Shown one piece after another: positions 25,372 to 43,611 of a DNA stretch of 64,000 nucleotides. The translations under genes and the position numbers were made by a program. The stretch comes from Cyanidioschyzon merolae. Lineage: Eukaryota. The DNA is taken from NCBI GenBank assembly GCA_000091205.1, contig AP006499.2; one strand, given 5' to 3'. Position 1 is the first letter of the stretch; each line of letters opens with the position of its first letter. The notes beneath the pieces are model-generated. The model saw nothing but the letters and a program-made list of their open reading frames with translations, was not told the origin of the DNA and ran no database searches.

Positions 25372-27061
25372 GGATGCAGAGATGCAGCTGTTGGAAATGG
25401 CGGAGCACGAGAGCGCAACGCACCATCGAGCACATATCGTCGTTTCGGACCATGTGTATCCAGCATGCGATAGCTTCGCATACAATAGGATAGAGAGCCT
25501 TAAAGCTTCGATGATACGCACACCATGTGCGTAGAATCTTGCGACTCAATCACGTTTCATCCCCGGGGCGGTGTTGAGCGAGAGATCGAAATCACGATGC
25601 AATGAGGTGTATTGATCAAGGACGAAGTGCCTGTGGGATATATTTTCTTTACTGAGCAGTGCAAGGAGCAATGCATTCCTCCTTCAGCGCAGCTATAGGA
25701 CAGTGTTCAGATAATTAAGGAACAGTGAAAGAAAGAAGCATAGGCGCGGTGTGCCATAAACCGAGATTCTCAGAGCGTTCTTTCGGTCCATCGTAAAAAA
25801 CGACCTGCTGATCATCTTCCGATAAGCAAAAGCGTCGATCGTAGCCACAAAAGGCATCCCTGCTTCTCAAAGATTGTTCATGTGGTCCTGAAAATACTCG
25901 GATACAGTTGCAAAAAAAGTGCGATTTCAATCACGGTAACCGTCTACCGAAATCGCAACGAATGCGTTCCTGGAACGTCATAATCGGTAAGAAGTAAAAG
26001 GACGTTGGTTTGTTTCTTCAGTCGATTCGACTTGCTTCGGACGATATGGTCGGAGCGTATATGGGTGTTCGCGGAGCAGGGAGCCCGGTGTACGTACAAT
26101 CGAACTCGAAAAAGGGACGACATCATCTATGCTAACTGCAGTGGACTCATTTGGCGGTCTCAGTTTCGCTGACAGACAACGCTCATAGAACAGCACCGAC
26201 AGCTTTGTCGAATCACTTAAGACTTTTCTCCTGACGCATGGCGATGTCCTTCAGTTGGACGACGTAGCATTTCACCATTCCCCTTGCGTTCGAGCTTTTG
26301 CCGAATCTATTCGGGTAGAGCTGCTTCTCATACCAGTGTACGCTCCGTGGCTCCAACCGATCGAGGAAGCGCTTTCTTTCCTAAGACGTAATGATCGCTC
26401 CACTTGGGGACTCGCTGAAGCGTTCAGCACACGGTGACACTCTGGGGAAAATGTTATCTTTCTTCCGCAATATCTTCTCCCTCCGAAATGGTCCTCATCT
26501 AAGTGCAAAATCCAATCCGTTCATTTGAAGAAATAAAAAAATCCAAGGGAAAGATATAGACGCGAGAGGCGAGCATCCTGGAGACCCAGTGTCTCCGGAT
26601 GCCCGAACGAAACGGAAAAAGCTCTTACTCTTGCCAATCATCGAGCGAAGAAGAGCAAGTGACGAAGAAGAGGATGGGAAAGAAAATACGTTTGCCCGAC
26701 GGAACGATGACGACACTGTGGTGCCACAGAGGACACGACTTCTAGCAATCCTTGCACTGATGAGTTCCACCAAATGCACTGAACGCATGGAAATCGTGAG
26801 TCGAGTCTTCAACCCCGCCATCAATTTCAGACGATTTGCGGTGCTCAGGACGAGACCCGATGCACTGACGCAGCCTAACTCATGGGCCAGCCTCTCAAGC
26901 TCGAAGCGTGCCTCGATGAACTGACGCCGATAACAAGGGGCCCGTCAACAAAGCCGAGAGGCGTCAGCGCGTCGGCGTATGTATGCATACATTCTGTGGT
27001 CGTAGAACGTTTTCGTTTCATTGCGCGTTCGTCAGCGCCTCCGAGCACAGCACCACTCGTT

Positions 27062-32944: not shown

Positions 32945-33474
32945 CATACGCGGTCGATGCATGTCGCCGCTGATGTTCCAGCTACATCTTCATCGTGTAG
33001 CTGAGGGCAAATCTTGTACTCCATAAAGCGAAGGGGTATCGAGCTCGCCCTAGACTTGTTTTATGTGGACCGAGAACAGCACGGCCACGTACAAGTTGTG
33101 TCTGTTGGCAGCGTGCCGCAGCAGCGTACGACGCTGCCTGGCCATTTTTTGCATCGCTGGACGAGTTCCGCGGCTGGGTAGCTGACGGCCTCCGTTCCTA
33201 TTGCGGCCGCAGGAAACAGCGAACACGCCTATGCCGCGAATAGCATTGCTTCGCGGATTTCGTGGTCGACACGGTGATTCAGCGTATTGCTTAACTAGGA
33301 ACAGATGACTCGTTGAACTGCAAGCGCTCGAATGCTGAACATGTAGAGACGGTTGCCTGTGCAAGCTGCCTGATCTAGTGTGCAACCACGAGCAGTACGC
33401 ATTAGGCGGTTTGAGTCGGTGTTCCGGACCTACAATATCGGTTGCTGTCAGCTGCACTGAGAACACGCTTCCAA

Positions 33475-33832
33475 CTGCATCCTTACATGATCAGAGGATG
33501 CTGGCGATAGAGCGCTTGCGATTGTGCATGCTTCCCGCCAAATGTGCTGCACGCATCGATCCAACAGACAGCACATACGCCGAACGCTTCCAACTGCATC
33601 CTTACATGATCAGAGGATGCTGGCGATAGAGCGCTTGCGATTGTGCATGCTTCCCGCCAAATGTGCTGCACGCATCGATCCAACAGACAGCACATACGCC
33701 GAACGCTTCCAACTGCATCCTTACATGATCAGAGGATGCTGGCGATAGAGCGCTTGCGATTGTGCATGCTTCCCGCCAAATGTGCTGCACGCATCGATCC
33801 AACAGACAGCACATACGCCGAAAGCGCTGCGT
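33475..33832. repeat. tandem repeat, 3 copies of a 119-bp unit
   Basis: ctgcatccttacatgatcagaggatgctggcgatagagcgcttgcgattgtgcatgcttcccgccaaatgtgctgcacgcatcgatccaacagacagcacatacgccgaacgcttccaa repeats almost perfectly, starting at 33475, 33594 and 33713. It lies just 3' of the helicase stop codon, between two convergent genes. Confidence 0.95.
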
Positions 33833-33847
33833 CGATCCGTGTACGTT

Positions 33848-36800
33848 TCACGTAGATGAGCGCATCGCAGGTGCGCCCTCACCTAGAAGTAGACGGAGCT
33901 GCTCAAAGTCGCTTGGATCGTTGACAAGCCTTTGCAGCTCCGTCTGAATTTGTTGGAGTTCTACGGAATGCTGCGGTTGGCGGGCAATCAGAGCAAGACG
34001 GTAGTATCGTTTCATCTGTTGGAAAATTAGCGAAAAGGTACGATCACCGACTCGAGCACGAATGCGTTCCATGATCGTTTTGCTGATCATTTGAGAGCCA
34101 CGTGCAAGAGCTGCATCCTTGTGCACAGCGGATACAGCTCGACGCTCGGCTTTCGCCTTCCAGACCAAGCCTGGTTCAGCGGTCGACGTCGACGAGACGG
34201 CCGTGGCGGCCACGTTGGTCTCGCGGAGTCTTTTCGACGACTGCGATGACAACGATAGCGAGCGCGCTCGCCGTGCATCGCATGTTCCCGTTTTTCCTGC
34301 CTGATCATACTCTTGGGACTGTCGCCCGATCATAGCTGCATGTTGCGCCATCGACTGGAGACGCGGTTGCTCGTCCTTGCTCGCCTGAAACGGATCAACA
34401 GGTGTGCGAACTGGCGGTACCGAGGTTGCGAGTTCCAACTGCGCCGCTGAGAGTTGGCGAATTCGCTCCGAGTGCCAGAAGCCGCACAGATTCGACATGA
34501 AGGTTCCAAAGCGCTCAAAAACTTGGATATTGTGCGTTGCTCGCGGATCCGCATCCGATGAAGCTGCACTCAGCCAGCGCGGGAGGTCTCTCAGATGAGC
34601 TCGAAACCGCTCGTCACAGAGGAGAATCGCTCCAAAGTCCTGCGCGTGACGAATCACCCGACCCATGGCCTGGTTTGCTGCTCGTAGGCATTGCTGCACG
34701 TACCAGAGGCGACCAGTGATCGTCTTGCCGTGATCCCTGAGGTGAAGCGCCTGACGTTCCAGATAATCGCGTTTCAGGATGATGCGCGGATCTGTTGTCG
34801 AAGGAAACGGAAGACCGACTAGAATCACCGTTCGTCCAAAGTCGTCAGCGAAATCGATCCCCTCGCCGGTGCGTCCTCGACAAACCGCGAAGAGGCATGC
34901 GTCGCGGCCGCTGGAAATCCATTGGCGGTAGGCGTCCACGGTTTGCCGAGAGGCGTCAGCGTCGCGAGGCTCCATAAAGATGCGCTTCACGGCATTGAGA
35001 CGATCCCAGACAGTCGCCTGGGTAGGCTGACGGCCACGATGAGCGGGATTCAACGGGTTGTTGTGATGAAAGGCGCCCGTCTGCCAGATTTCTACGAACC
35101 GAGCGAGCAGCACATAGGACGGAAAGAAGACGAGCATGCCACGCGGTGAGACGCGAGCGATATTGACCAGCGCGCTACCGAGATCCGAGATATACTCGCG
35201 ATTGTGTCGATTCGCATACGAGCTGTTCAGTTGAATATCCCGCGGCCCTTTGGTAAGGATCCCCGCGAATACCTGAGTTGCTGGATCGACGACATGGGAG
35301 TTCTGGAGACGAACTGGAAACGAAGCACCCATCTCCGATGCAACGGATTCTAGGGGGCTCAGCGTCCCTGAGGTCAACAGCACTGCATGTGCATTCGAGG
35401 TGGCTCGACGGAGCGCGAGACCCGGCCAAAGGCACCAGAATGAGAGCGTGTATCCTGTAGAGGAGCGATGTTCACGTGCGGATTGGTGTACGTACTTGCC
35501 AGAGGCAGCCTCTGCCGCTGCGGTGCCGCTCAAGGGTGGGCGCTGCTGCGACGGTGTTTGCCTCGGCCATCCGACACCATCGTACGCGGAGGGCGTCTTC
35601 AGACGACTGGGATTCATCGCCTGGTGGGTAGTACCAGCGGTGCCCTTCGCCGGCTCGTGCACACAGATCGCGAACGTGGACGCCGTCTCTGGTTTCCCGA
35701 ACAGACGAGATAGCTCCAGCACCTGACTGAGCTGCTCTAGCGCGTGCACCTGAGCGGCCCATGCTGCCGCTGACGTGCGCTGTGTAGTCCGTACTTGTCG
35801 GTGAAGCAGCCCCGTATAAGGATCACCCTGATCCCGTGTCTCTATGGCATCTGCTTCCGGCGCCTGTGAATGATCGAGCGCAGCAGCGGTCCCGTCAGGG
35901 AATTGTTGCCGCAATTGTGTGAGTGCACGGATCGCCGCTTCTACGCCGCGGAGCAGACGCTCATACGCTTCCTCGGTGAGCGTTGCGTCTTTCGAAGAGC
36001 ACTGCAAAAATGATTCAATAGCATGACCAGGAAGCACCACGCCATCAATCCCTTCAATCCGACGCCGCTGCCCAAAACACACCGTGCCTCCATTCTCTGC
36101 ACCAGGGCGCGCATGAGACGCCTTGGCGTCCGCCTGGGAAACCAGCGATATGCGCTCTTCAAGTGCGACCATGATTTCGAGCAGAGCGTGGAGATCAGAC
36201 GCGTGTAGCGCGGGCTCCGTGTTGGATCCTTCGCGCCCGTCGCGGTTCAGAAGACCCGAGGATAGCGCACTTGCCAATTGCTGAATAGCGCTGACGCACC
36301 TTTGACGCTCCGCAGCGGTAAAATCGAAGCTGAGACTATCACAGCAGATGCTCTCCAGATTGTGTGCCTCGTCGCCGATGATGATATCGCCTTCGACGCT
36401 GAGCCCCAGCGAACGCCGACACTTGCCATCGAACAAATAATTGTAGGGCATGAAGATGATTTCGGCCTCGGCAGATGCCTCACGACTGAGAAAATAAGGG
36501 CACATCGCATGCTGATGCCCGTACGCTGCCAAGTCCTCGAGGTCTCGTGGGCGCCGTCCCGGAAGCGCTAGCGTCGAGGTGCTGTCGACGGCGATGAAGA
36601 AAAAGTCATCGCCAACCTCCTTGAACTTTTGTTCGGCATTCAGATAAAAGCTGCAGCGTCGCTCTTTAGTCAACTGGGTACAACGAACGTTCTGCATTGT
36701 GGCGTTTTCGAGTCGAGATACAACCGGGTGGACGCAGAGGTGCTGGCGGGAGCCGAGGACCACGGTCCGAACGCTCGCACCATATGCGGTTCTGCTGAGC

Positions 36801-37276
36801 TCTCGCACTGCCTGCTTGATCTGACTATGCGTTCGCGTCAGGTAGATGATTCTGGGAACCGACTGCAGGGGCGTTGGGCCCGGCCCGTTTTCAGAGCTGG
36901 CCGCAGGTACGAGGCCACGAAGGCTGGCCTCCGGTGCCACGACTGCACCGGCTGCACCCTGCACCCCCTGGAGCAAGCGCTCACCATAATCGTTCTTCGG
37001 GCTGTCATCGGCTAGTGATTTGGATATGCGCTGAGTGCTAGCCTGACCTTGAACTTGGGCAACGAGCAACGAGCGCCAGGCTAGTGCCGCACACAAGAGT
37101 CCGAGTGTTTTGCCCGTGCCCGTCGGAGACTCCAAGAGCGCGTTTTGTCCGGTTTGCAGCGCTTCGATCACATGTTCCATATACCGAACTTGACATGGAT
37201 ATGGCTCGAAGGGAAATTCTACGGGGACTTGGCGAATAAACAGCGTTCGGCCCGGAGCGGGGCTACTGGAAGCCAT
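33848..37276 (-). CDS. Rad3/XPD-family Fe-S DNA helicase (RTEL1/FANCJ-like, DEAH box) with C-terminal extension
   Basis: FPFEPYPCQVRYMEHVIEALQTGQNALLESPTGTGKTLGLLCAALAW (Walker A), IIYLTRTHSQIKQAVRELSRTAY, the Fe-S Cys contexts (LCVHP, CPYF), DEAHNL (helicase motif II) and C-terminal helicase motifs. The start was taken at MASSSPAPGRTLF (cat at 37274-37276) rather than the upstream ORF-track start. Confidence 0.85.
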   Translation of the reverse strand: MASSSPAPGRTLFIRQVPVEFPFEPYPCQVRYMEHVIEALQTGQNALLESPTGTGKTLGLLCAALAWRSLLVAQVQGQASTQRISKSLADDSPKNDYGERLLQGVQGAAGAVVAPEASLRGLVPAASSENGPGPTPLQSVPRIIYLTRTHSQIKQAVRELSRTAYGASVRTVVLGSRQHLCVHPVVSRLENATMQNVRCTQLTKERRCSFYLNAEQKFKEVGDDFFFIAVDSTSTLALPGRRPRDLEDLAAYGHQHAMCPYFLSREASAEAEIIFMPYNYLFDGKCRRSLGLSVEGDIIIGDEAHNLESICCDSLSFDFTAAERQRCVSAIQQLASALSSGLLNRDGREGSNTEPALHASDLHALLEIMVALEERISLVSQADAKASHARPGAENGGTVCFGQRRRIEGIDGVVLPGHAIESFLQCSSKDATLTEEAYERLLRGVEAAIRALTQLRQQFPDGTAAALDHSQAPEADAIETRDQGDPYTGLLHRQVRTTQRTSAAAWAAQVHALEQLSQVLELSRLFGKPETASTFAICVHEPAKGTAGTTHQAMNPSRLKTPSAYDGVGWPRQTPSQQRPPLSGTAAAEAASGKYVHQSAREHRSSTGYTLSFWCLWPGLALRRATSNAHAVLLTSGTLSPLESVASEMGASFPVRLQNSHVVDPATQVFAGILTKGPRDIQLNSSYANRHNREYISDLGSALVNIARVSPRGMLVFFPSYVLLARFVEIWQTGAFHHNNPLNPAHRGRQPTQATVWDRLNAVKRIFMEPRDADASRQTVDAYRQWISSGRDACLFAVCRGRTGEGIDFADDFGRTVILVGLPFPSTTDPRIILKRDYLERQALHLRDHGKTITGRLWYVQQCLRAANQAMGRVIRHAQDFGAILLCDERFRAHLRDLPRWLSAASSDADPRATHNIQVFERFGTFMSNLCGFWHSERIRQLSAAQLELATSVPPVRTPVDPFQASKDEQPRLQSMAQHAAMIGRQSQEYDQAGKTGTCDARRARSLSLSSQSSKRLRETNVAATAVSSTSTAEPGLVWKAKAERRAVSAVHKDAALARGSQMISKTIMERIRARVGDRTFSLIFQQMKRYYRLALIARQPQHSVELQQIQTELQRLVNDPSDFEQLRLLLGEGAPAMRSST

Positions 37277-37699
37277 CCAAGCGAAACGCCCCGCTCGAGG
37301 ACAGACGTATACGTCCGTCTGAGCGCTGCATGCTGAATGGCGCCAAGTCACTGCACTGCGACTGGTATCGGTACCCTGGGGCCTTGCAAGCACCCTGGTG
37401 CTGAGTTTGAAGGCTTGTTTTCGGGGCTTTTATAGCAAAGGAACATGCTATGGGAAATGTGACGATCGTCCATAGAATAGTTTGGGAGCGTTCTCTTTCA
37501 GTCGGGAAACTGCTGGCGTCTTCCCGCACCCGTGTGTGCGGTGAGTGGACCGCTGGTGGCGCTTTGTAGACGTCGCTACGCCTATGCGAGGGCGTTTCGG
37601 GGTGACTCGAGGATCGCTTCTCTTCGACGCGTTTTCCTCATGGAGCAGAGGCATGGTAATGTGTCCGTTTTTAAGGTTCAGCGCACCGTTGGAAAGACA

Positions 37700-39376
37700 T
37701 CACCAGCACCACCACCGCCTATCACACGGACGATGCCGCCCGTGTACAGTAGTGGCGAGAAACCCGCCCTGGACAAAACGTCTCCAACCGAGGTGCAGAC
37801 GTCTCCTAGTCCTTTTGGACCGGCCATCTACTACTGCTTCCAACGTTGTCTCATATAGTTCGACTTTGAGAGGTTGTCCCAAAAAATTCTCTCTTGTCGA
37901 CTCTGGAGGTCTCGTCTCCAGCACCGCACATTTCCTTGTATTGATTGCGGCGTTAAAGTCTCGGTTCACGAATTCCATACGTTTCTCCCCGTTGGTAGTT
38001 GTGCTTACTAGTGCGCCTAGTCCTCGAACTTTCGCCCTCCTTTCCGTTTGCTCCTCCGTCAGCGCTCCGTACTTTTTTATATCCTCAGGGGTCCGTTGGC
38101 ACTTTTCCATCTCCACGCTCTGAAGTGTACACCCCAGTTCATGGTGTGTATGCAATGCTCGGAACTCATCTACAGGTATTGTAACAAAACACCTCGCGCA
38201 CTCCTTGGATGTTCTTGTCGTTGGAGCTGGCGTAGTTCCTTTTTGTATCTTCCGGCGCCCTGCTCCATATGCCACTACGAGCCTCTGATTTTCATCCTCT
38301 TTCAGGGCACTCAACTCATTGAAAAAGTCCGCGAACGCCCGCTGCCTCCCACCGTACAGATTCATCCGCAAACGAGCCCGCCGGGGCTTGGTATACTCCT
38401 CCCACAGCGCATCCCAATGGGCAACACGAACTTCCATGAATTTCCGAAAAGCTTCAAAGTCGGCTCTTCGGCTGGTCACCTCGCTCAAAGCCTCCAGGTG
38501 ATCCTTCATTCCTGCGTTCCACTTCTCAGTTTTCTTCCTCGCATTCATCATTCCCGATTCTCGACAGTATCTCGCTCTCGAGAACCTCAAAAGACGCATG
38601 TCTTTCTGACGGAAGTTGCCGTCAGCACCATCTTCCGCACGCTTCGGTGCTGCGATGGTGATGATATTTGTGTTTCGGGGGTCCGCGCCAACGACAAGGT
38701 CGTTATCCTGCACTTTCTGCGTCTCAAGACTCGCCTCCTTCTTTTCTTCATGCTTCATCGCGTCAACGACAAGCACGTTATCCTGCACTTTCTGCGTCGC
38801 ATGTTCCGCCTCCTTCTCATCTTCATACTTCGTCACGCCAACGACAAGGTCGTTATCCTCCATCTCCTGCATCGCAGGATCCCCCTCTTTGTTTTCTTCA
38901 TCCTTCGTCACGGGCGCAGCCGAGGGCCGAACTGGACGATCTTTCTTCAACCGCCGATAGTGTATACACAAGGCTACTCCATCGGTTTCGATCAACCCAG
39001 TGAACCACTTTTGCTCGCTCACTCTCAGACGTTTGAAATTGAAGATATTCTTCCAGTACGTCTCCCGGTTTTCGCCGGTGAAGTCCTCCCTGCTAACATT
39101 GAACTCCGGACTGATCTCCTTCATGATGCCGTAGAGGACGCCGGAATCGATAGTCACGAAATGTGACTTGATATTGCACATTGGAACGATGTTGAAGCGC
39201 TTCCCCATTAGGAAAGCCTTCCGTCTCTCCCACTCTTCATTTTTGTCCTCACTTAGCTCCACCTCTGCCTTGCGTTCGAGTTCTCGGTCCAGAAACACAA
39301 AATAGCGCAGGATGAGGCGATAGTATCTTTCCTTATCTTTTTTATCTCTGATATCTTGTCTGCTGGATTCGCCCAC
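37700..39376 (-). CDS. TnpB/Fanzor-family (OMEGA) RNA-guided endonuclease-like ORF; likely an incomplete gene model missing spliced N-terminal exons
   Basis: C-terminal region has a zinc-ribbon, [38 protein letters not shown], followed about 40 aa later by [20 protein letters not shown]. The latter is the RuvC-III RDxNAAxNI signature of IS605/IS607 TnpB and eukaryotic Fanzor, encoded at 37939-37965. Upstream, [17 protein letters not shown] matches the RuvC-I G-x-D-P-G/R strand, and [20 protein letters not shown] resembles a WED/REC strand. The annotated start codon is GTG, not ATG. Upstream minus-strand ORFs in other frames (39253-39633, 39618-39812, 39870-40181) could be further exons. The last 50-60 codons are probably read-through into host sequence. 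Confidence 0.6.
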
Positions 39377-40480
39377 CCGAGTACCGCACGGTGCTCTTGT
39401 ATAACCGCACGGATTACAGAAGCTTCATTCGTGCTGCCGTTTGATATCCTCATGTCCACAAATTCGACCTCATCTTCATATCTGCGATCGTTCGTGATGC
39501 CATTGATAATCGCCCATATCCCCTTGCAAGAGATACCCCCGTACAGCGCAAACACGGCGCGTATCATGAAACGTTCGAGGTTCATTGTCAAAAGGTTCTT
39601 CAGGTTCGTGATATACTTCATCGCTCCGTACATGTAAATACCCCGGTCACCCTTGTATCGAGTACCCTCGAACCCGTAAAAGGGATGTCGTTCGTGGAGC
39701 GCGTGAACCCGCCCATTTTACCCCGCGTTTCCTCTGCACCAAACACCAGGTGCCGAATAAAGGTCTTGTCAAAGAACTCGTCTGGAATCTCGACTGTTTC
39801 CACGTGCGCCACGTCTTCTTACATCTCGCGCACCAAATTCATCAGTCTTGACGACACCTTTATAATACTCTAGGAGTACAGATCGACATGCTGTCTGATG
39901 TCGTCTTGCAACTTTTGCTCATCCGAATCCTCGAGGTGTCCATGAGGGCGGGTTACCACTACCGTCCCGTCATAGTCTCGTGTTTCGTGCAGCTTCTGAC
40001 GCCGGGCCTCCCCTTTTGCTTCCGTGTCTTTTCCTGTTCCTCTGCACTTGGCAGTGTTTCTCTTTTTTTTCTGGCAGCCGGCGACACTGCGCCTCCAGGA
40101 TCCTTCATTTCTATGTCCATAACTTTCCTTTGCTATGTTTTTGAAAAAGAACGCATTTTGAACGCTTCCGTTATAAACCACGTAAAATCACTTGAATACA
40201 CTCATGTGAAGATTGAAACACAATTGAATTTAAAGATTATATTATGCTACGACTTGAACGCAAATACAACTTGTGCGTTAGAGCAATACGCTATTGATAA
40301 GGATCGCGTTTCCCTTCAACGGCGAGGTACGCGTCGTATCTCATACCTGCCTGATCTGAAAGTGGGCTTATCGACTGCGCTATTGAAAAAAAGAACAGAG
40401 ACTAGCCCCTATATAGCAACGAAATAACATTTTCTTCTCCCTTCAACGATAAACGTTAAAAGGCGGGAAAGGTTTCCATT
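37860..40480 (-). mobile_element. candidate Fanzor-bearing insertion: lower-GC island of about 2.6 kb between the helicase and transporter genes (ends not defined)
   Basis: Base composition drops visibly between about 37860 and 40480 compared with the flanks: AT-rich runs, a poly-T at about 40060 and no host-like GC-rich ORFs. The island contains the TnpB/Fanzor-like ORF. No terminal inverted repeats and no second transposase were found. The boundaries are from composition only. Confidence 0.3.
38687..38911 (-). repeat. in-frame triplication of a 75-bp (25-codon) unit inside the Fanzor-like ORF
   Basis: Three head-to-tail units: gccaacgacaaggtcgttatcctgcactttctgcgtc..., gtcaacgacaagcacgttatcctgcactttctgcgtc... 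and gccaacgacaaggtcgttatcctccatctcctgcatc.... They encode [50 protein letters not shown] and [25 protein letters not shown]. The last copy runs directly into the RuvC-I motif ADPRNT. Confidence 0.9.
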
Positions 40481-41346
40481 TTGTCGAAACTTTACCTTCT
40501 TGGCGGAAGATCTCGCGAGCCGGACGAGTATGCCTGGCGGGTGCTTCATGCTCCCGCACTAGCGGGTGCCGTAGTGAGATCTTGGCAGCTCGTCCGAAAC
40601 CCAATTTTTATTGGAATAGGACTAGAAGTGGACAGCTCTCATCCAAGTGTCGCCTTGGTCGCAGTGATCGCTTATAGTGACCCTTTGCGCGGCCGCACGC
40701 AGAAGCTCTGTCTGCGATAATTGCTGGCTCCCAGATTGATAACGAAACCTGATCCCGTGTCGCGCAAACCACGCCTCTAGTCGACGCCCCCAGTGGTATG
40801 GCAAAACCTTTCTGTCCCCGTGATGCATCCACACAAGCGGTTTAGGCGCTGTAGCGGGTGCTCAGCGCCGGCACTCGGCACACAATAGATCGTAAAAAAA
40901 CTACCCGTACATCCGAGAGACATTATAAATAATGGAACATGGGAGTAGGGTTCTCCAGCATGATGAACGCTCTCTCGATTACCAGTACCCATCCATCCCG
41001 CGATTTTAGATCCACGGTCAACGAAAACGTCTTGTGAGCGGAGAGCGGAGCGCCGCGCGGTACGCGCTCCACCGCGCGCCCGTTGATGATCGCGAGCGCG
41101 CCGGTGCGCCGCGCACTGCACCAACGACCGCACAATGCTCACGTCCGCGTTGGATTGTCTGGGTGTTTGTTTTCTTTGCAGTGACGAGGAGGCATACGGG
41201 TTTGCGCTTACAAGTCTAGCGCTCACCGCAAGCACTGGTGGCTGCGTGAGGGCGCAGACGAAATCGGGTGGTTTTTTACCGACAGAAGCGCATTTGATCG
41301 GGGCTGGAACGCTGCGCTGCTTGCGTGTGCTCGTGCCGCTCGTACG

Positions 41347-43611
41347 ATGGCGGCAGTTCGGACGGCAGGGGAACAGTTTGCTCTAGCATCCTGGGTTGCT
41401 GGCGTCCGGGCATTGTCGAGCACGAGCATCGCTTGCGGAGAGGGAGCTACTGGTGGCAATGGGGCCCAGCGCAATCCGCTACAGCGCTGCAGCGCCTCAA
41501 CCGCAGCACGGATGCGATTTGCAGGCACGTTGGACGCCACGAGTGATACATGCAACTCAGATAAGGTCCGTTTGGGAGTAGCTGATGCCAGGCACCTTGA
41601 GCTTGCGTTCGGAGTGCACGTTATGGAGACGAAAACTCTGGTCCGTTCAGCAGCTGCTGCAGGCTCAAGGTGCCCGCTGCAGCCCCTACTGCTGCAGACG
41701 CACTCTACGCGGTTCGAGCATAGATCTATGGCCCTAAATCCGCGCTGGATGATGCCGTTCACTGCGCCACGGAGTCGTAGTCGAAGCCTAGGATGCGCGC
41801 CTAGCCGTCGCTGTAGACTCGTTTGTGCAGGCGTGGATGACCCGATCGGGAAGAGAGCGCGTCAAGAGGACGCATTTAGTGCATCTATCCCGGGTTCACG
41901 ACTTGATGGCGAAAGGCAGCAATCAAGTTCGAATGTGTCGTCAGACGGCTCAGCGCTAGCATATACTGGCGCTTCGTCGGCAGTGGTGCTCGAAGGCGCG
42001 AATCCGCAGTTAGATGCGAAATATCGGCACTGGCGGGTGCGCGTCTTCTACTCCATCTTTCTCGGTTACGCTTTCTTCTACTTTACGCGTAACTCCTTCA
42101 CGTACACGGCACCGGCGCTACGAGCAGCACTGGGGCTTTCACTCGAACAGCTTGGCGTCATCATGTCCGTGTTCCCGTTAGCATACGGCTTCTCTAAGCT
42201 GTTTCTGGGTATCGCAGCGGATCGATTTTCCAGCCGTGTCTTCATGGCGCTTGGGATCTCGCTCACCGGTCTGGTGAATATTTTCTTTGGATTGCAGTCG
42301 AATGTATACGCGATGACAGCGCTCTGGTTCTTAAATGGGATTTTTCAAGGCAGTGGCGCAGCGCCATGTGCGAAGCTGCTCACTCGCTGGTACAGCAAAA
42401 ATGAGCGAGGAACCTGGTGGGGCCTCTGGAATACCTCCCACAATACTGGCGGATTCTTCATTCCATTGATTGTGGGGTACAGCGTCAAGAGGTTTGGGTG
42501 GCGGTATGGCATGATTGTGCCAGGTGTCTTGGGAATCCTCATGGGCATTTTCCTACTGAACAGGCTGCGTGATTGCCCTGAGGAGGTCGGCCTGCCGCCC
42601 ATTGAAATCTACCGCGATGATCACGCCGAAGATGTTCAGCGAAGGAGCACCGCTGCAACCCGTTCAACGAGTCCCAACGGTGCAGCACCGGGCTCGTCGT
42701 CGTCGCCTGCGAATGCGGAAACCCCAAAGACCGCGGGCAAATCAGCATCCGCACGGGAGCAGGCCGCAACGAACAAGTTCTTAGAAGTCATCGGTAATCC
42801 GTATGTGCTGCTGCTAGCGATCAGTTACTTTTTCATCTACTTTTGTCGCCAGGGCATCAGTTCATGGACCGTTATTTACCTGACGAGCATGGGCGTGCCG
42901 CCACAAGAAGCGGCTTTACGTGTCGGTAGCATGGAGATTGGCGGACTCTGTGGCTCCCTGGTCAGTGGTGCAGTCAGTGATCGGCTTGCTCGCGGCCGCC
43001 GCATTCCCGTCATTCTCTTCTGGATGCTGGGTGTGGTGGCGGCGCTCGTGGCCATGTGGCTCTCGCCCGCCTCTCGGCGCTACTTGTCCATGCTCTGCAT
43101 CTTCACGTTCGGCTTTTTCATTTACGGCCCACAGATGCTCGTCGGCCTGGCCGCAAGCGAAATGGTCAGCCCGGACTCGGTGTCGTCGACCATCGGGTTT
43201 CTCGGTTGGATCGCTTACATAGGCGCAGCAACCAGTGGATACCCGCTGACGCGCATTGTATCTGCGTTGGGCTGGGATGCGTATTTCGCAGCGCTTATCT
43301 GTTGTGCCTGTATTGCTATTCTCCTGCTTTTGCCGATGTGGCGAATTGGTGAACGTCAGGCCAAAGCGATCGCTCGCAAATGGCGAGCGCTTGTCGCGGG
43401 TGCAGCGGCGAACTTTCAAGCACTGCATGTGCAAGACGATGGCCAGTACGTCGACTGTGAAGCGTGTGCGGGAGCAGGCACACGCCTCCGCATGGAATGT
43501 GGCCCTGCAACACCCGCTCAAACAGTTTCCTGTAAGCTCGTGGAAACGCCGTGTGAAAAGTGCTTCGGTACCGGAAGCATTCGGCTTCCTGCGGAAGATG
43601 CAACCCGTTGA
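41347..43611 (+). CDS. MFS organophosphate:phosphate antiporter family transporter (GlpT / UhpC / SLC37-like sugar-phosphate or glycerol-3-phosphate transporter) with N-terminal extension and Cys-rich C-terminal tail
   Basis: ATG verified at 41347. Core WRVRVFYSIFLGYAFFYFTRNSFTYTAPAL...GVIMSVFPLAYGFSKLFLGIAADRFSSRVF...WFLNGIFQGSGAAPCAKLLTRWYSKNERGTWWGLWNTSHNTGG is the classic OPA-family signature. There are twelve hydrophobic helices. About 200 N-terminal residues are hydrophilic and may be a transit peptide or not coding. The C-terminus carries two CxxCxGxG motifs. Confidence 0.8.
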   Translation: MAAVRTAGEQFALASWVAGVRALSSTSIACGEGATGGNGAQRNPLQRCSASTAARMRFAGTLDATSDTCNSDKVRLGVADARHLELAFGVHVMETKTLVRSAAAAGSRCPLQPLLLQTHSTRFEHRSMALNPRWMMPFTAPRSRSRSLGCAPSRRCRLVCAGVDDPIGKRARQEDAFSASIPGSRLDGERQQSSSNVSSDGSALAYTGASSAVVLEGANPQLDAKYRHWRVRVFYSIFLGYAFFYFTRNSFTYTAPALRAALGLSLEQLGVIMSVFPLAYGFSKLFLGIAADRFSSRVFMALGISLTGLVNIFFGLQSNVYAMTALWFLNGIFQGSGAAPCAKLLTRWYSKNERGTWWGLWNTSHNTGGFFIPLIVGYSVKRFGWRYGMIVPGVLGILMGIFLLNRLRDCPEEVGLPPIEIYRDDHAEDVQRRSTAATRSTSPNGAAPGSSSSPANAETPKTAGKSASAREQAATNKFLEVIGNPYVLLLAISYFFIYFCRQGISSWTVIYLTSMGVPPQEAALRVGSMEIGGLCGSLVSGAVSDRLARGRRIPVILFWMLGVVAALVAMWLSPASRRYLSMLCIFTFGFFIYGPQMLVGLAASEMVSPDSVSSTIGFLGWIAYIGAATSGYPLTRIVSALGWDAYFAALICCACIAILLLLPMWRIGERQAKAIARKWRALVAGAAANFQALHVQDDGQYVDCEACAGAGTRLRMECGPATPAQTVSCKLVETPCEKCFGTGSIRLPAEDATR

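Follow-up and report, generated by a model that had tools for sequence, protein, structure and literature searches.

The stretch of DNA analyzed here (the window) comprises 64,000 nt of contig AP006499.2 of the red alga Cyanidioschyzon merolae, and the translations of five of its open reading frames (ORFs) exactly match C. merolae 10D RefSeq proteins (XP_005538176, 178, 179, 184 and 185) from a 1.23-Mb chromosome. Between a glycerol-3-phosphate transporter gene (41347-43611) and the ORF of an RTEL1/XPD-type helicase (33848-37393; Pfam domains DEAD_2 and Helicase_C_2), the minus strand carries an ORF that the initial annotation had called Fanzor-like, with a possible guide-RNA (omega-RNA) scaffold at its 3' end. 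This ORF lies within a transposable element that is almost certainly a copy of CMe-1A, a non-autonomous Fanzor1-carrying family of C. merolae. The last ~130 nt of the element hold a conserved, sense-strand structure with compensatory base changes, which is a probable omega-RNA scaffold.

The Fanzor1 gene and its element

The element was delimited by comparison with ~80 loci from environmental metagenomes with Cyanidioschyzon-like populations, 78 of them non-syntenic with the window; 237 matches were confirmed in hot-spring-type metagenomes. By blastn, a core of ~2.7 kb (40370-37700) is common to 55-78 loci and an upstream module of ~650 bp (41045-40387) to 20-26 loci, and across the 3' 550 nt the copies are 75-85% identical at the nucleotide level. 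A syntenic metagenome contig shows 98% protein identity to the window ORF and 100% identity over the 551-nt 3' region compared. CMe-1A has been described from the same host as a family of about 150 copies, each ~80% identical to a consensus of about 3 kb, without terminal inverted repeats (TIRs) and with target-site duplications (TSDs) that could not be determined; its 5' 635 bp form a separate repeat, TE-N2_CMe, and some copies keep intact ORFs although a transposase is absent (Bao and Jurka, 2013, Mobile DNA 4:12, PMC3627910). The element in the window shares with this family the host, the size and Fanzor1 content, the many copies, the lack of TIRs and a 5' ~650 bp that also occurs as a separate repeat. 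An alignment of left-end and right-end consensus sequences for TIRs scored 13, equal to the shuffle mean of 12.8, no DDE_3 sequence was found within 41045-37699, and the element flanks are not TA. The coordinates of all features are collected in Table 1.

The Fanzor-like identity of the ORF (37700-39376) was borne out, as it is of Fanzor1 type, contains the D/E/D codons and belongs to a family whose wider profile matches solved Fanzor1 structures. When the family profile was run in an exhaustive HMMER search, it returned 3,202 cluster representatives at E <= 1e-3. Of these relatives, 56 make up profile A6, at whose head stands P0003, an intact paralog of 752 aa with 75% identity to the window ORF. 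This profile matched PpFz1 (9cf0, 1.1e-25), SpuFz1 (8gkh, 5.2e-18) and GtFz1 (9cer, 9.7e-15). The wider profile was required, as profile A1, built from close copies only, had no match in the PDB and the window ORF alone gave only a weak match to SpuFz1 8gkh (E = 0.15). A second, word-indexed protein search was filled by close copies and returned nothing more distant; the closest protein matches of the window ORF are 63-80% identical. Neither the window ORF nor P0003 matched a family in a Pfam scan, and the CxxC pairs of the zinc-ribbon/TNB domain (PF07282) are not present in the CMe-1A Fanzor family consensus, while PF07282 is matched by 16 of the 56 members of A6. An AlphaFold2 model of intact P0003 was too poor to be used for a fold search (predicted local distance difference test, pLDDT, 49; predicted template modeling score, pTM, 0.29). 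The RuvC motifs of the window copy read ADPRN, VDEFR and NRDFNAAIN, where the canonical forms are DPG, VDEFRTS and NRDxNAA; residues next to the catalytic positions have decayed (DPRN for DPGN, RALH for RTSY).

Alignment with P0003 shows the window copy to be a pseudogene that carries at least two frameshifts: tblastn of the paralog gave three high-scoring segment pairs in three frames (40016-39723, 39717-39337 and 39343-37877). The 3' end of the gene is also altered. The commonest stop codon of the family is the TAG in GTCTAGGG (9 of 42 copies), which is CAG in the window copy, and the ORF therefore continues to a TGA at 37700-37702, one base short of the element end. The exact 558-aa product of ORF 37700-39376 is absent from the protein collection, its best match there being a 98% environmental allele, and the Fanzor pseudogene between the helicase and transporter genes therefore seems to be unannotated in C. 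merolae 10D. Within the ORF, a 75-bp tandem repeat of 3.0 copies (38686-38912, 80% match) encodes a K/E-rich linker before RuvC-I; the number of units varies among near-identical environmental alleles (P0002 has more), and other copies are without the repeat.

Table 1. Features of the element, its 3' module and the adjoining flank (window coordinates)
Feature	Positions	Strand	Evidence or remark
CMe-1A Fanzor1 element copy (almost certain identity), about 3.35 kb	37699-41045	minus	blastn against 78 non-syntenic loci; conservation drop at the right end
5' module resembling TE-N2_CMe	40387-41045	minus	recurs apart from Fanzor, in both orientations, in other loci
Fanzor1 pseudogene	37700-40016	minus	remaining ORF 37700-39376, 558 codons; N-terminal ~240 residues in two other frames
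RuvC-I Asp codon	38681-38683	minus	sequence reading; (near-)invariant column in A6
RuvC-II Glu codon	38165-38167	minus	sequence reading; (near-)invariant column in A6
RuvC-III N-R-D codons	37958-37966	minus	sequence reading; (near-)invariant columns in A6
Conserved structured 3' module, candidate omega-RNA scaffold	37709-37831	minus	match to covariance model R1, 102 bits, E = 2.6e-30
Helix H1, CCGGUC ... GACUAG	37806-37823	minus	R1 alignment row; two-sided changes in 5 of 6 pairs, 48 copies
Helix H2, GAGACGUCU ... AGACGUUUU, 9 bp	37775-37805	minus	fully paired in the window copy; two-sided changes in 6 of 9 pairs
Helix H4, GGCGGG UUU CUCGCC	37754-37768	minus	R1 alignment; directly after the family's usual stop codon
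Unpaired motif ACUACUGUAC	37744-37753	minus	mostly conserved in alignments A2 and A4; several positions nearly invariant
Terminal hairpin region H5	37709-37743	minus	window copy has ACACGGGCG/CGUCCGUGU in place of family GGCGUCGUUCGA/UCGAACGGCG
G/T-rich right-end tail, ..GCUGGUGAU	37699-37708	minus	last element bases, loosely conserved; tail comparison and conservation drop
Would-be guide position, host DNA GTCTTTCCAACGGTGCGCTG	37679-37698	minus	putative, from position: first ~20 nt past the right end
Host flank, upstream of the RTEL1-like helicase	37400-37698		no match in non-syntenic copies; folding z = -0.59
Small inverted repeat in the host flank, cgcacccgtgtgtgcg	37525-37540		5-bp stem; no other copy has that DNA

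The right end and the structured 3' module

Homology with about 75 other copies ends at 37699-37745, varying by copy. In the coding region, 0.9 of the copies agree with the consensus; this fraction declines through 0.82, 0.75 and 0.68, and then drops to 0.34 at 37699/37698; past this point the flanking DNA is unrelated from copy to copy. The abrupt drop and the unrelated flanks beyond it thus place the right end of the element at 37699, so that 37400-37698 lies wholly outside it. In two copies (L058 and L043) the tails share ..GCTGG(C/T)GA(T/C) and are divergent afterwards.

The initial annotation had put the element end near 37860, where it saw a change of composition, and had looked for the guide RNA within 37400-38050. 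The change of composition is real as a drift across the zone, with GC content at 0.48-0.52 above 37800 and 0.54-0.58 below, and GC skew shifting from about -0.2 to +0.15/+0.22 between 37900 and 37600. Position 37860 itself is close to two landmarks, namely ~37840, where protein similarity to distant Fanzors stops, and 37831, where the structured module starts, but it is not the element end, as homology continues well past it. Below the right end, 37400-37698 is host flank of the helicase gene, of which only the first ~20 nt would belong to a guide RNA, as its would-be guide. The start codon of the helicase is likely an ATG near 37277 by eye, and the gene call in the syntenic metagenome locus begins near 37180. 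The hairpin that had been singled out at about 37515-37535 exists, but it lies at 37525-37540 (Table 1), has a short stem and is outside the repeat. As the 301-nt stretch around it (37400-37700) is no more stable than chance, with 28 of 100 shuffles folding equally well, cgcacccgtgtgtgcg was rejected as a part of the scaffold.

Folding and covariation analysis across genomic copies, which the initial annotation had proposed as a check, revealed a conserved, sense-strand-specific and covarying structure in the last ~130 nt of the element (37831-37699). This module starts inside the 3' end of the extended Fanzor ORF and finishes at the right end. Single-sequence folds of 37 non-redundant right ends showed recurring features: H1, CCGGUC..GACUGG; H2, GAGGCGUCU..AGACGUCUC; H4, GGCGNG..CNCGCC; the unpaired ACUACUGUAC motif; and a short G/U-rich tail. 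In the family, H5 is a terminal hairpin of 10-12 bp that comes in two or more sequence versions, GGCGUCGUUCGA/UCGAACGGCG and AACGUUUUUC/GAAAGACGUU, and is 91% paired in alignment A4. Because hairpin registers vary among subfamilies, the helices were set by hand from the single-sequence folds and then tested. An alternative hairpin, AGAC/GUCU, competes with H2; it is 90% paired and shows no covariation, and is neither supported nor excluded.

In an unfitted MAFFT alignment of 20 copies, two-sided changes occurred in 11 of 33 pairs, against 4.8 +/- 1.6 in shuffled alignments, and one shuffle in 500 reached the observed count. The covariance model R1, built from this alignment, located the module in all copies searched, each time at the 3' end, and once in the window. 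In the 48 copies aligned with R1, an alignment that is fitted to the model, two-sided changes were found in 24 of the 33 pairs (11.5 +/- 2.1 when shuffled; 0 of 500 shuffles), and 82.6% of cells were paired, compared to 43-52% with slid partners. As a control within the same copies, the consensus minimum-free-energy structure of the module was compared with those of three adjacent coding windows. The module gave 13 pairs with double changes at -53 kcal/mol and the coding windows 2-4 such pairs at -21 to -31 kcal/mol, so that compensatory pair changes are 3-6 times as frequent in the module. Over the 37 copies, the module has a mean folding energy of -36.7 kcal/mol per 100 nt (z = -1.47), whereas the coding windows range from -19 to -25 (z = -0.1 to -0.9).

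These comparisons bear on the simplest alternative, that the structure has no function and reflects inherited sequence and chance, inflated by the kinship of the copies. Such relatedness is a documented caveat of the covariation tool, several copies have z-scores above -1.2, and copies that are ~85-90% identical to their consensus will show any consensus-derived structure as 84-89% paired. The last effect was visible in our coding controls, and the percentage of paired cells was dropped as evidence. The coding windows adjoining the module in the same copies share this kinship, but their double-sided changes are several-fold fewer and their folding energy is about half; together with the shuffled alignments and the strong strand asymmetry described below, this makes a structure without function highly unlikely.

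The asymmetry between strands appears both in the alignment and in the folds. Among the aligned cells, 254 are G-U and 51 are A-C. In the window copy, the sense strand of the module (134 nt) folds at -63.4 kcal/mol (z = -4.18; 0 of 200 shuffles) and the antisense strand at -35.4 kcal/mol (z = -0.82), and ten other copies differ in the same direction. This favors a single-stranded sense molecule, be it RNA or one of the DNA strands, and speaks against a palindrome in double-stranded DNA.

Since one-strand tolerance of G-T pairs would also fit a single-stranded DNA intermediate, the terminal hairpins could instead be cis-acting transposition signals located at the right end, without any guide RNA, read as single- or double-stranded DNA by an as yet unidentified transposase in the manner of Helitron, IS91 or IS200/IS605. 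The structure is located exactly at the element end, several alternative 5' modules go with a single conserved right end, and the family is one without TIRs and with undeterminable TSDs (PMC3627910). However, an HUH or Y1 transposase was not seen near any copy, and the transposases linked to this clade of Fanzors are all of the DDE_3 (Tc1/mariner-like) type. A module of ~130 nt with four helices that extends into the ORF is also more than a typical end signal. We thus regard a purely cis-acting signal as unlikely, though it is the main rival. It is compatible with a guide-RNA role: in IS200/IS605 elements the right-end hairpin serves both as transposition signal and as part of the guide RNA, and the two roles need not be exclusive here.

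A further possibility is that the module is an ordinary element in the Fanzor mRNA's 3' untranslated region, acting in 3'-end formation, stability or translation control and not as a guide. That it sits on the sense strand, at the stop codon usual for the family and beyond it, would fit. Against this, the module comes within about 10 nt of the transposon end, half of it overlaps coding sequence, and in related Fanzor1 systems this same position is occupied by the omega-RNA; we consider such an element distinctly improbable.

A candidate omega-RNA scaffold

The location of the module is the one in which an omega-RNA would be sought: it is on the sense strand of the nuclease and at the ORF's 3' end. 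The R1 match stops 10 nt short of the right end, and the DNA directly 3' of the conserved sequence is variable and copy-specific, as expected for a guide. Known Fanzor1 omega-RNAs reach 14-15 nt past the conserved region (PMC10432273) and have 2-4 stem-loops (PMC11423790). Because its position, strand, size and multi-hairpin architecture match those of known Fanzor1 omega-RNAs, we judge that the module is reasonably likely to be the omega-RNA scaffold of CMe-1A. The idea of a scaffold at the 3' end of the Fanzor ORF is thus plausible at the level of the family, with the difference that the predicted scaffold is 37831-37699 and not 38050-37850 with the sequence below it.

Among the characterized systems, SpuFz1 of Spizellomyces punctatus is a homologous protein (5e-18 by profile), whose scaffold is also on the sense strand and runs from the ORF end to the right end; the flank that follows is variable (Saito et al., 2023, PMC10432273). 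SpuFz1 elements differ in having 30-nt inverted repeats and a scaffold of ~75 nt with two stem-loops (PMC10432273), whereas CMe-1A is without TIRs and its predicted module is ~130 nt long, has four helices and overlaps the ORF. GtFz1 of Guillardia theta, a protein homologue as well (1e-14, 9cer), has a longer omega-RNA with four stem-loops (Xu et al., 2024, PMC11423790). The nearest outgroup elements found are Fanzor1 carriers of Tc1/mariner type (P0075, P0076, P0082 and P0093), which belong to the same clade (37-48% identity) and likewise have Fanzor as the last gene. These outgroup elements have a DDE_3 transposase and TIRs of 28-32 nt ending in TA, both of which the window element lacks, and 180-200 nt of non-coding sequence between Fanzor and the right TIR; relative to them, CMe-1A has lost its transposase and TIRs. 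The same logic holds for the TnpB omega-RNA of bacterial IS200/IS605 elements, in which the scaffold consists of the nuclease gene's 3' end and the right end, and the guide is the flank. Those elements, such as ISDra2, differ in having a Y1 transposase and a defined transposon-associated motif (TAM) at the left end, and neither is identifiable in CMe-1A.

On the model of known Fanzor1 and TnpB biology, active copies would transcribe the module in sense orientation, either along with the 3' end of the Fanzor message or out of it, together with a short run into the flank. The Fanzor protein would bind this RNA, and the ~15-20 flanking bases (here ~37698-37679) would act as a guide to cleave the matching site that is without the element.

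Several observations weigh against this interpretation. Transposon copies share descent, so that covariation counts overstate the number of independent events, and clear-cut compensations are only a few, at the level of subfamilies. The z-scores of individual copies are weak (-0.8 to -3.8), the share of paired cells does not discriminate the module from coding controls (84-89% in the latter), and RNAalifold predicted no pairs in the raw MAFFT alignment of 37 right ends; run per subfamily, it gave fragments only. The 10-20 nt semi-conserved tail that separates the terminal hairpin from the flank is not clearly explained. R1 found nothing over noise in the 3' regions of four distant relatives' loci; a likeness seen there by eye (a hairpin, then ..ACUGUA..) is anecdotal only and was set aside. 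No TAM could be derived from the heterogeneous 5' ends, with at least four alternative 5' modules before the common 5' boundary, and the window copy is itself a pseudogene. A scan of 37000-41200 against Rfam 15 (E <= 1) returned only a chance match to the L20 leader, far under threshold; we know of no Rfam family for Fanzor omega-RNA.

In the window copy, the guide system is probably dead, given frameshifts in the protein, loss of the usual stop codon and an altered terminal hairpin. The terminal hairpin was at first glance simply degenerate, a description that was dropped because a different stable hairpin forms; this comparison is limited to identical syntenic copies. A CCACUAC segment in the window copy can pair with the (GGU)n tail. 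With the ORF broken and the terminal hairpin replaced, the copy is best regarded as a relic, and any omega-RNA at this locus is probably a relic too, since the copy is a pseudogene.

The CMe-1A element itself was already known, and the paper that describes it (PMC3627910) predates the discovery of omega-RNA and gives neither a 3' RNA structure nor the exact right end. No RNA from CMe-1A was found reported in the searchable literature, in which the predicted scaffold also appears not to have been described before. Few Fanzor elements, no more than a handful, have an omega-RNA defined by experiment. CMe-1A is old and abundant as a Fanzor1 family, and its host is a thermoacidophilic alga that is genetically tractable and recombines efficiently by homology. 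The predicted scaffold, with its covariance model, helix map, exact right end and position of the guide, opens two questions to direct testing: whether CMe-1A is an active RNA-guided nuclease system, and what Fanzor does in an element without a transposase. A very improbable reading, which we offer as speculation, is that transposase-less CMe-1A spreads by a route dependent on Fanzor and omega-RNA, with Fanzor as the only mobility protein and not a mere maintenance factor. RNA-guided cleavage would then be followed by homology-directed or template-switch copying. This is proposed because the family is without a transposase and, according to PMC3627910, without TIRs and a determined TSD, yet has ~150 copies, one conserved structured right end and several interchangeable 5' modules. 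The locus in the window carries a more modest message, that of a dead copy just upstream of an RTEL1-like helicase gene.

Alternative 5' modules, related elements and other repeats

The 5' part of the family is modular. In loci L005-L081, ~300 nt upstream of the equivalent of window position 40380, there are at least four unrelated upstream sequences, each in several copies, that join the Fanzor core at one point (..ATCGCGCTCGGTGAGCGC..). One group of 5' variants has the TE-N2-like module in the orientation opposite to that of the window copy, and upstream of the TE-N2-type left end no conserved motif was evident. One 5'-variant group has an extra right-end-like module upstream of the Fanzor gene (R1 38-80 bits), ~900-1,500 nt from the common 5' boundary (L024:1497-1622, L041:409-518, L030:2174-2278 and L077:1022-1124), which suggests tandem or composite arrangements, or 'ghost' elements with the RNA module only. 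In the window, a second TE-N2_CMe-like 5' module of ~650 bp is present at 1719-2275 on the plus strand; it is 67% identical and has no Fanzor ORF attached.

The loci of the Tc1/mariner-type outgroup (L082-L092, those of P0075, P0076, P0082 and P0093) are compact elements of 3.0-3.6 kb with Fanzor1. Identical elements with different flanks were found in several metagenomes, and these elements therefore look recently active. The window also contains a degraded Tc1/mariner-like DDE_3 remnant on the plus strand (25619-26392 and 26535-26879), with 33% identity to the outgroup transposase (E = 1e-31). This is followed directly on the same strand by short fragments of the Fanzor 5' region and RuvC-III, in the gene order of the outgroup and heavily deleted.

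In the stretch that separates ABC1 from the helicase gene's 3' end, a 119-bp unit is perfectly repeated in tandem (33465-33822, 3.0 copies, 100% match), and serial mechanical ORFs recur with it on both strands.

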